Part shown: positions 11,775 through 13,753 of the stretch, one piece after another
Position numbering within the stretch: the stretch's first letter is position 1
How the letters are laid out: each line of letters opens with the position of its first letter
Virus record (IMG/VR): IMGVR_UViG_3300021185_003947
Strand: one strand, 5' to 3'
DNA length: 64,000 bases
DNA from: a virus
Lineage: Duplodnaviria > Caudoviricetes
Notes under the pieces: model-generated
Database searches by the model: none
Seen by the model: only the letters and a program-made list of their open reading frames with translations
What the model was told of the DNA's origin: nothing
Made by a program: the position numbers and the translations under genes

Positions 11775-12542
11775 CTACTCTTTCATATTTTTTATATTCT
11801 CTATGTAGCAATCCATACTATGATCACTAAAATTATCTATCTTTAATTTCATGACACCAGCAGCCATGCCTTTTAGTCTATCCCACAATCTTTTAAAACC
11901 AGATATTTTTACTATTTGACCTTCTGAATTCATATAATGTTCTGTTCCATGATGTCTATAACCCATCATTACTAAAGGTACACGAGTAACAACGTCGTTA
12001 TTATTTACGAATCTATGATGGATTACGCCAAGTGAATTACAATATTTTTTAAAGCCTACACGAGGAGAACCAAACGTATACAATTCAACCGGATCGTTTA
12101 AAAATAAATTATGTAGACATCTTGAGGCCATAATAGTTGCCATGCCTGCTCCGAGTGAATGACCAGTAAACCAAAGAGTCTTGCCATTATTCTGTTTTCT
12201 AGTTAAATCTTCGCATATTGCAGGCCACAATTCATCAACTTCTGATTTAAATCCTTTATGAACTCTAGATACTGTTTCTGCCATTACCGGAATCGATTTT
12301 AAGTCTGCTTTAATGTCATTGAATTCATTTGGTTGAGTTCCTCGACAAGCTATAATACAATCATACTTATTCATAAATCTATATGCCTGTGCGCCATTGA
12401 CATCATAAAATTCAATTGTATTGAATTCAAGTCTACGCGCAGCGCCCGTAGCTTCTTTAAGGTCAGAGTACGCAATTGCTGATAGTCGAGCAAACAAGAG
12501 GCTTCTGGCTTTAAAACTTAATTGATTTATTGGTCGTGCCAT
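11775..12542 (-). CDS. Class 3 lipase (alpha/beta hydrolase)
   Basis: ACRGT, VHKGF, TGHSLGAG, TFGSPRVG, NNDVVTRVP, DHSM (Ser-Asp-His triad motifs). Confidence 0.92.
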   Translation of the reverse strand: MARPINQLSFKARSLLFARLSAIAYSDLKEATGAARRLEFNTIEFYDVNGAQAYRFMNKYDCIIACRGTQPNEFNDIKADLKSIPVMAETVSRVHKGFKSEVDELWPAICEDLTRKQNNGKTLWFTGHSLGAGMATIMASRCLHNLFLNDPVELYTFGSPRVGFKKYCNSLGVIHHRFVNNNDVVTRVPLVMMGYRHHGTEHYMNSEGQIVKISGFKRLWDRLKGMAAGVMKLKIDNFSDHSMDCYIENIKNMKE

Positions 12543-12812: not shown

Positions 12813-12922
12813 TGGCTCCAAGGGCAGGATTCGAACCTGCACGAATATAAATATTCTTTTGCTAAGACTATATATTCACAACATAAACAGTGCTGCGTGT
12901 CTACCTATTCCACCACCTTGGA
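12813..12922 (-). tRNA. Atypical tRNA-Asn(GUU)-like RNA with a 38-nt variable arm
   Basis: TCCAAGG/CCTTGGA acceptor + G73 + CCA; D-arm GTGGAATAGGTAGACAC; CAGCA-CTGTTTA-TGTTG anticodon arm; variable region 12841-12878; GCAGG-TTCGAAT-CCTGC T-arm. Confidence 0.85.
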
Positions 12923-12928
12923 TTATTC

Positions 12929-13753
12929 TTACTTTTTAAGAGTATCGATCGCGCTTATCATGCGTGTCATACCAATTCCACCACCAACTCTTGGAAAGAA
13001 ATCAAATTCAAGAAACTTTTCAAGTTCTGTTTCAACACGATCTTTACCAAATAATTGGTTAATAAGACCAGCATATTCTCCATTTGAAATAGTATGAAAT
13101 GTATCTCGCATTTGGTCTTTATCAGTACTGCGTTCTGCACTACCAATTGTTTCCATACCACCAAGGATAACATCAATCTTCTTACTTGTACCATCTTCAT
13201 TTCTTGACATATTCCAAAATGGACTTGTAAATTCAGGAAATTCTGTAATCATAGAACTACCAAAACTAGCTTCCATTGCTAACTCGTGCTGAGCATCTAA
13301 TTCTGTAGTAGAACTTAGACCGTAATGTTGTTGCCATTCACGATATGTTTTTTCTGTTGGAATATCAAATCCTAAGTGATTACATAATTGATATTCCATA
13401 GTCTTAAGATCATCGATGTCTCCTGGCATTTCAAATTCAAACATCGGAAAAATCGTATCATGTCTTCCAGGAATTGCATTTGGTTCTTGTCTATACGAAG
13501 TCGAGACACAAAAAAACCCCTTCGAAGAGGGGCGAGTTAATAATTCATATTCCAACCACATCTGGCCAGTTTGAGGAAGAGGCCATATTTGCCCTTCATA
13601 ATTATATGTTGCTACATTTTCTGGATCTTCACATGCAGCTAAAATGCTTAATCGGTTTTGTGTATGTACTTCTTCAAAGCCTCTATTCAAAAAAAATGAC
13701 CTTAAAAGGTCAACTGCTTTTGTAAATTTTTTTGGTTCAATCAATTGCGTCAC
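12929..13753 (-). CDS. Class IIb aminoacyl-tRNA synthetase catalytic-domain-only protein (AsnRS/AspRS-like; AsnA- or EpmA-like architecture)
   Basis: Motif 1 FFLNRGFEEVHT; motif 2 SYRQE..GRHDTIFPMFEFE; GMETIGSAER; motif 3 GGGIGMTRM; 274 aa with no N-terminal OB-fold. Confidence 0.88.
   Translation of the reverse strand: MTQLIEPKKFTKAVDLLRSFFLNRGFEEVHTQNRLSILAACEDPENVATYNYEGQIWPLPQTGQMWLEYELLTRPSSKGFFCVSTSYRQEPNAIPGRHDTIFPMFEFEMPGDIDDLKTMEYQLCNHLGFDIPTEKTYREWQQHYGLSSTTELDAQHELAMEASFGSSMITEFPEFTSPFWNMSRNEDGTSKKIDVILGGMETIGSAERSTDKDQMRDTFHTISNGEYAGLINQLFGKDRVETELEKFLEFDFFPRVGGGIGMTRMISAIDTLKK

Follow-up and report, generated by a model that had tools for sequence, protein, structure and literature searches.

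Canonical bacterial tRNA-Asn(GUU), for example the product of asnT in Escherichia coli, is a class I tRNA with U33, A37, a variable loop of 5 nt, the discriminator G73 and the first pair U1-A72. Long extra arms on tRNAs with unexpected anticodons have been noticed in the allo-tRNAs, which, reportedly since the work of Mukai and co-workers in 2017, are said to be Ser-type long-arm tRNAs with non-Ser anticodons and acceptor/T stems of 8/4 or 9/3 bp. Charged tRNAs are also used in metabolism: Glu-tRNA serves in haem synthesis, and Asn, Gln, Cys and Sec are made on tRNA. To our knowledge, no tRNA-dependent pathway has a dedicated non-standard tRNA encoded beside its enzyme, and none operates in pyrimidine synthesis. 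GluQ-RS is one of several synthetase paralogues reduced to the catalytic core, and we know of no member of this group that has a dedicated tRNA gene. The Asn identity set consists of the anticodon and G73, and the determinant for GatCAB is U1-A72 (PMC9976931). Asn tRNAs with GUU anticodons are also targets of phage defence, since the tRNAs that the PARIS nuclease AriB cuts near a shared U36-A-A-U39 motif include tRNA-Asn(GUU); a variant tRNA-Asn of phage T5 aids escape, and the published PARIS bypass requires three tRNAs (PMC12409363). Our search of the literature on cyanophage tRNA-Asn, phage synthetases, AsnRS paralogues and missing aspartate carbamoyltransferase (ATCase) yielded no published account of the tRNA, of the enzyme family or of the pairing reported below; a 'tRNA ligase' (T4-GC 194) is merely listed in a table by Sullivan 2010.

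The stretch of viral DNA analysed here is 64 kb long (hereafter the window) and carries, on its minus strand at 12813-12922, a tRNA-Asn(GUU)-like gene of 110 nt including the encoded CCA, with its 5′ end at 12922 and its CCA end at 12813. The original prediction of such a gene proved correct. In the scoring check proposed with it, the Infernal-type Rfam tRNA model RF00005 gave 44.7 bits against a gathering score of 29 (E 2.8e-6 over the whole window, both strands), the unconstrained minimum-energy fold of the 110 nt was a cloverleaf with a long extra hairpin (−30.2 kcal/mol, z −2.1), and the stems were found to be kept in 56 relatives. ARAGORN called five ordinary tRNAs in the window and missed the gene at 12813-12922, probably because of the long arm. 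An Rfam 'freshwater-2' match over the T arm was dismissed (19.8 vs 49.9 bits). Megablast of the tRNA region against phage records and blastn of a 98-nt family member both returned no match, and the record nearest to the window contains no tRNA.

The acceptor stem is formed by UCCAAGG (12916-12922) and CCUUGGA (12817-12823); its first pair is U1-A72 in 56/56 relatives, and pairs 2-6 covary. The T arm (12824-12840) has the stem GCAGG/CCUGC and the loop UUCGAAU, as indicated by the Rfam alignment and by covariation, and both the 7-bp acceptor stem and the 5-bp T stem are fully paired in all 56 relatives. The anticodon arm (12879-12895) combines the stem CAGCA/UGUUG, in which all five pairs covary, with the loop CUGUUUA, in which the anticodon GUU occupies 12886-12888. 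The 3′ end carries the discriminator G73 (12816), which does not vary among the relatives, and the encoded CCA (12813-12815). All these parts are present as originally described. The D arm (12897-12913) is likewise intact; however, it is not of class I but of the class II (tRNA-Leu) type, with G18 G19 in the loop and a stem of 3 bp, of which two covary. According to the Rfam alignments, its letters from position 8 to 27 are identical to those of the tRNA-Leu(UAA) of the same phage at 14757-14839.

The two unusual features first noticed, a variable region of 38 nt and U37, were both confirmed, the former at 12841-12878 and the latter at 12885. The variable region consists of U44, an irregular 35-nt hairpin (12843-12877) and GU, which is the extra-arm junction of tRNA-Leu, and the hairpin is indicated by the fold, by covarying arm pairs and by a helix test on mid-length relatives. 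The long hairpin with a 7-bp outer stem was drawn correctly in the original prediction, but its inner TCTT/AAGA stem probably was not; comparison with the relatives L014 and L010 suggests that the arm is better read as 7 bp, a 3′ UU bulge, an inner stem of 6-7 bp with one G-A mismatch, and the loop AGCAA.

Comparison with the described tRNA classes showed that the RNA falls between them. With canonical tRNA-Asn, the phage family shares GUU, U33, G73 and U1-A72, and some members also have the loop CUGUUAA. Unlike canonical tRNA-Asn, which as a class I tRNA combines GUU and G73 with a variable loop of 4-5 nt, a 4-bp D stem and A37, the phage tRNAs have a class II D arm and an extra arm of 13-39 nt, and most members, the window's included, have U or C at position 37. 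The long paired variable arm and the D arm are those of class II tRNAs, whereas an anticodon for Leu, Ser or Tyr and A73 are replaced by GUU and G73. In particular, the letters of the D arm and the U44-hairpin-GU junction agree with the phage's own tRNA-Leu(UAA), and the differences from tRNA-Leu lie in GUU, in G73 instead of A73, in U1-A72 and in an arm up to three times longer. The resemblance to allo-tRNAs is limited to the long extra arm and an anticodon foreign to Leu, Ser and Tyr; comparison with these and with the class II long-arm tRNAs, as had been proposed, revealed the standard 7/5 geometry instead of 8/4 or 9/3, a Leu-type core and mostly C2-G71. The tRNA-Asn(GUU) of T5 is likewise phage-encoded and likewise departs from the host motif U36-A-A-U39 in its anticodon arm (PMC12409363), but this class I tRNA of 78 nt has G1-C72 and A37 and neither an extra arm nor a linked enzyme. 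These comparisons support the conclusion that signals of the Asn type (GUU, G73, U1-A72) are combined in this RNA with a body foreign to any cellular tRNA-Asn. It may be a chimera, in which the acceptor end (U1-A72, G73, CCA) and GUU would be of the bacterial tRNA-Asn type and the D arm and arm junction of the tRNA-Leu type, the extra arm having presumably grown to 35 nt in the lineage of the window.

The same tRNA family is found in marine T4-like phages, namely P-SSM2, P-SSM5, P-SSM7 and hundreds of IMG/VR contigs. In the three named phages, a tRNA of 85-86 nt with the same CUGUUUA loop and G73 lies directly after a gene for a 'tRNA ligase'. In the P-SSM2 record (NC_006883.2, L001), a tRNA-Asn feature is misplaced at 164094-164179 inside a CDS; according to Rfam, the true gene lies at about 162083-162168, after the 'tRNA ligase'. 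Pair counts were based on an alignment of 56 different tRNA copies (A1). The results showed that 99.6% of its cells are paired, compared with 35-60% in slid controls, that 18 of the 23 pairs have changes on both sides, and that covariation scores 0.544 (shuffles, 0.155; 0/500 as good). In the arm helix of 27 mid-length copies, 89% of cells are paired, whereas slid controls reach 36-51%; both partners of a pair change at the base of the helix, while higher up A-U gives way to G-U, facing a conserved 3′ UAUUUA. The CCA end is encoded in all 56 relatives except P-SSM2 and P-SSM7. Copies of the tRNA with its neighbouring gene, 64-98% identical, were also present in marine MAGs labelled Bacteroidetes, Legionellales, Flavobacteriaceae, Neomarinimicrobiota and Poseidoniia (L089-L095), which are most likely phage contigs in wrong bins.

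The covariation among the 56 copies implies that the tRNA is under purifying selection and is neither a chance match nor a decaying gene, so that the selection on the stems that was originally suspected is borne out. Decay in relatives, which had been named as a check, was looked for in all stems, and each of them proved to be kept by compensatory changes. It is thus highly improbable that this is a non-working long-arm tRNA, be it a decaying gene or one whose 35-nt hairpin is removed to give an ordinary tRNA-Asn. The missing ARAGORN call and an arm far longer than in any cellular tRNA would fit such an explanation. However, the helix of the arm is conserved and covaries like the other stems, the arm lengths run continuously from 13 to 39 nt, the junction is exactly that of tRNA-Leu, and removal of the hairpin would leave a class II D arm rather than an ordinary tRNA-Asn. 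No splicing signal was seen, and we know of no system in bacterial hosts that removes an insert at this site of a tRNA. The suggestion of an excised insert thus finds no support.

The main clue to the role of the tRNA, which the original prediction did not mention, is its obligate link to an AsnRS-like gene located upstream on the same strand (12929-13753, minus strand), whose stop codon precedes the tRNA by 6 nt. Neither a promoter- nor a terminator-like site was found between the two genes in the window, so they are likely to be co-transcribed. The linkage was examined from both sides. In an enzyme-first sample of 80 loci out of more than 588 IMG/VR relatives of the protein, a tRNA of this kind was located directly 3′ of the enzyme gene in 75/80 loci, starting 10-20 nt past the stop codon. 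In a tRNA-first sample of 80 IMG/VR loci, retrieved with a pattern made from the D arm and anticodon only, the enzyme was located directly upstream in 79/79 evaluable loci, and the 80th had too little upstream sequence; no member of the tRNA family was thus observed apart from the enzyme. The reverse does not hold, because the enzyme occurs without the tRNA in 5/80 close loci and in all the more distant relatives examined (44-59% identity). The distant relatives lacking an adjacent tRNA were found in TARA and Logan phage-like contigs, two huge phages, and Bacteroidota and CPR MAGs; in one distant bacterial relative (L121), a canonical tRNA-Asn follows about 250 nt downstream, beyond a terminator. 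In P-SSM2 and P-SSM5, two genomes of 252 kb, this tRNA is the only one encoded. The enzyme-tRNA pair sits among different neighbour genes in P-SSM7, P-SSM2 and the window. A gene for a class 3 lipase/esterase (11775-12542, minus strand) follows the pair in the window, in P-SSM2 and in P-SSM5, in genomes that are otherwise dissimilar.

As the tRNA is found only directly behind the enzyme in ocean phages, the two probably work as one unit, and as the tRNA is never alone while the enzyme can be, we read the tRNA as the accessory of the enzyme. The distant phage and cellular relatives without the tRNA indicate that a private tRNA is not needed by the enzyme in general, and part of the adjacency, as it is seen within one clade, could reflect inherited gene order. 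Overall, we tentatively favour, at close to an even chance, the reading that the gene encodes a functional phage tRNA, a chimera that is co-transcribed with an AsnRS-derived catalytic core and is useful only alongside it.

Analysis of the positions that are fixed and those that vary among the 56 copies suggested where such a tRNA might be read. Invariant in all of them are U1-A72, G73, U8, G18 G19, U33, the anticodon G34 U35 U36 and the T loop; GUU, G73 and U1-A72 among them are exactly the positions read by AsnRS or non-discriminating AspRS (ND-AspRS) and by GatCAB (PMC9976931). Other parts are far from constant. The variable region measures 13, 15, 17, 28-33, 35 or 37-39 nt in the family and forms a hairpin in every case, the longest arms being found in the window, L003-L007, L012, L014 and L089. 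Among unique sequences, the anticodon loop is CUGUUUA in 34, CUGUUAA in 9, UUGUUUC in 7 and CUGUUCA in 5, and a relative of the two-gene cassette with 69% identity (L093:1165-1260) has the loop CCGUUUA, that is, C33 instead of the near-universal U33, together with U37. A FastTree tree of the enzyme with 77 rows requires at least 11 changes at position 37, at least 17 of loop type and at least 15 of arm-length class. For example, the near-identical enzymes of L042, L048 and L053 adjoin both an 82-nt UUGUUUC tRNA and a 98-nt CUGUUUA tRNA, from which it appears that the tRNA slot is refilled by members of the family rather than lost. The positions relevant to decoding (33, 37 and the 32-38 pair) are relaxed in the family. 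U37 had been regarded as a hint of a non-standard role; it is indeed the majority state of the family, but U, A and C alternate at this position among close relatives, so that U37 is not itself the functional key.

The same variation could be read as the mark of an arms race. The tRNA would then be an ordinary host-charged decoder of Asn codons, whose odd loop and arm resist tRNA-cutting defences and whose adjacency to the enzyme is inherited gene order, and we regard this as unlikely, though with some real chance. tRNA-Asn(GUU) is among the targets of AriB, the U36-A-A-U39 motif is broken alike by U37, C37 and U37-C38, and frequent switching of loops and arms fits such a conflict. Other phage tRNAs bear extra arms too, among them the long-arm tRNA-Ile(UAU) of related contigs, and the arm may therefore be a trait common to these kinds of phages and unrelated to the enzyme. 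The family is, however, never found without the enzyme (79/79), and some members, for example in L018, retain a sensitive U-A-A-U-C motif. In P-SSM2 and P-SSM5 it is the sole tRNA, yet the published bypass takes three, and the escape variant of T5 is an ordinary class I tRNA of 78 nt, which implies that an extra arm is not needed for escape. We also know of no tRNA-cutting nuclease of this type in the hosts. If the tRNA is instead the non-decoding accessory of the enzyme that we favour, its arm length and positions 32, 33, 37 and 38 would be free to drift or diversify.

The AsnRS-like gene encodes a protein of 274 aa that starts at the catalytic domain, the N-terminal OB-fold anticodon-binding domain being absent. 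Pfam detects only the class II D/K/N core (PF00152, 6e-14), and the NCBIfam synthetase models score far below their cut-offs, TIGR00457 (asnS) giving 18.7 vs 342.6 bits, which sets the protein apart from AsnRS itself. The protein resembles the 'tRNA ligase' of the Prochlorococcus phages P-SSM2, P-SSM5 and P-SSM7; among 50,697 phage records, it occurs only in these three and in two or three huge phages. No related loci were retrieved from IMG/VR with the distant relatives P0041 and P0144 as queries. An AF2 model built with 58 relatives (pLDDT 96.6) was about equally close in Foldseek to the catalytic domains of AsnRS and of archaeal/eukaryotic AspRS. VIA-align placed AsnRS first (Z 27-28, 21-22% identity; PDB 8h53, 2xti, 1x54, 9sh8), in accordance with a class IIb fold, followed by AspRS (26), archaeal asparagine synthetase A and GenX/EpmA (24) and LysRS (about 23.5). 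The lack of an anticodon-binding domain is shared with the core-only paralogues archaeal asparagine synthetase A (AS-AR; 3p8t, Z 24.1, lower than AsnRS; profile E 5e-7) and EpmA/GenX (3a5z, Z 24). Motifs 2 and 3 are kept as YRQE and GGGIGMTRM. Profile alignments showed that the family agrees with AsnRS in the motifs QxxLE and ExE, in which AspRS carries Lys and Asp at two residues that we take to be the Asp/Asn discriminators, and that the Glu conserved in AsnRS ahead of the motif-2 aromatic residue is replaced by Ile. The first feature together with the Glu-to-Ile change suggests a pocket that is Asn-like but non-standard.

The two genes could also form a private translation pair, in which an anticodon-blind synthetase charges only this tRNA through G73, U1-A72 and the class II body, and the tRNA reads AAU/AAC as the phage's own supply of Asn-tRNA. 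The tight two-way linkage, the closeness of the enzyme to AsnRS with its ATP motifs kept, and a share of 5.8% for AAU plus AAC among the codons in the window are consistent with such a pair. Charging by LeuRS or TyrRS is not expected because of G73, and C2-G71, an antideterminant against SerRS (PMC9976931), is present in 44/56 relatives. Against this stand the presence of a pyrimidine at position 37 in most members and of C33 in one, both poor for decoding, the Ile in place of the conserved Glu, and the acceptance of neighbours with very different arms by near-identical enzymes. Moreover, the enzyme family works without an adjacent tRNA in bacteria and huge phages, and its occurrence in cells goes with a gap in pyrimidine synthesis rather than with the lack of an AsnRS. 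A private translation pair is also unlikely in our estimate, and we give it about as much weight as a decoder shaped by tRNA-cutting defences.

The pyrimidine gap was revealed by the cellular relatives of the enzyme (L096-L120; 52-59% identity), which are carried by Bacteroidota, CPR and other MAGs (genomes G002-G006 and G067-G081). Five carriers were tested in which a full AsnRS was present in 5/5 and AsnB in 4/5, implying that the enzyme family does not fill an Asn gap; a gap-filling role in Asn synthesis was accordingly considered unconvincing. In the same five carriers, ATCase (PyrB) was found in 0/5, dihydroorotase (PyrC) above the cut-off in 0/5 and PyrD in 5/5. Another fifteen carriers, drawn from other lineages and some with genomes of 6-8 Mb, had PyrB in 2/15 and PyrD in 13/15, which brings the counts to 2/20 and 18/20 for all the carriers. 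PyrB was present in 46/60 non-carrier genomes of the order of G002 and in 14/14 control genomes. In L103, the enzyme gene adjoins pyrD. These results are strong circumstantial evidence that the cellular relatives replace ATCase and dihydroorotase while PyrD is kept; they fall short of proof, as the genomes are MAGs, for which completeness is uncertain, and some of the carriers are related to one another. The pyrimidine link is thus drawn from presence and absence in MAGs of cellular relatives. Among the phages, pyrE is encoded by P-SSM2, P-SSM5 and P-SSM7; a search of the 64-kb window for pyrE and of the phage genomes for PyrD found neither. Carriers of the enzyme family without PyrB and PyrC also provide a testable gap-filling prediction in its own right.

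Dihydroorotate is formally asparagine plus one carbonyl carbon bridging its two nitrogens, and this relation suggests how the accessory tRNA might serve the enzyme. The tRNA would be loaded with Asn by the host, either by AsnRS or by ND-AspRS, through GUU and G73, followed by GatCAB, through U1-A72; alternatively, the neighbouring AsnRS-like enzyme itself may charge it. The charged tRNA would then act as a dedicated Asn carrier for the enzyme in a reaction outside normal translation, similar in its working only to the known uses of charged tRNA as a substrate carrier outside decoding. This reaction is probably the one that replaces ATCase and dihydroorotase in cells and would yield dihydroorotate for pyrimidine synthesis. 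A tRNA-bound route to dihydroorotate is speculation, and we know of no precedent for the proposed tRNA-dependent chemistry. In its full form, the scheme would comprise two genes, one for a non-decoding tRNA(GUU) that the host's tRNA-dependent route loads with Asn and one for the enzyme that makes dihydroorotate from this tRNA-bound Asn, and would amount to a tRNA-dependent bypass of the first two committed pyrimidine steps; in this form we consider it unlikely.

Should the two genes act as a unit, one possibility is a self-contained synthetase/tRNA pair of natural origin in which the anticodon is ignored, and such a pair would be of interest to genetic-code engineering; the other is the first dedicated tRNA to serve a metabolic enzyme in nucleotide synthesis. 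Either way, the family shows that the class I or class II body plan of a tRNA is not tied to its amino-acid identity, and that a conserved natural tRNA can do without a purine at position 37. With its more than 588 enzyme matches in IMG/VR, the cassette is abundant in marine viromes, and its presence in culturable systems (P-SSM2, P-SSM5 and P-SSM7 on Prochlorococcus NATL1A and NATL2A) makes it directly testable.

Several other RNAs were observed in the contigs examined. A glutamine riboswitch (glnA RNA, 59 bits; L092:2632-2691) follows the odd tRNA at a distance of about 70 nt in a marine phage-like contig binned as Neomarinimicrobiota. In a phage-like contig binned as Legionellales, a permuted (alpha-type) tmRNA (L090:1059-1432, 125.7 bits) is encoded on the strand opposite to the AsnRS-like gene, about 70 nt upstream of where that gene starts. 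The tRNA-Ile(UAU) of related marine phage contigs, about 90 nt long with a long extra arm (L028:2864-2957, also in L048 and L071; ARAGORN), places another class I identity on a long-arm body. In addition, the huge phages LR756501/LR756508 (L125-L132) carry several tRNA-like genes of 91-121 nt with long extra hairpins and apparently non-Leu/Ser/Tyr anticodons, including one with U1-A72, G73 and the loop CUUUGGA; some of these are assigned differently by ARAGORN, so their identities are uncertain.
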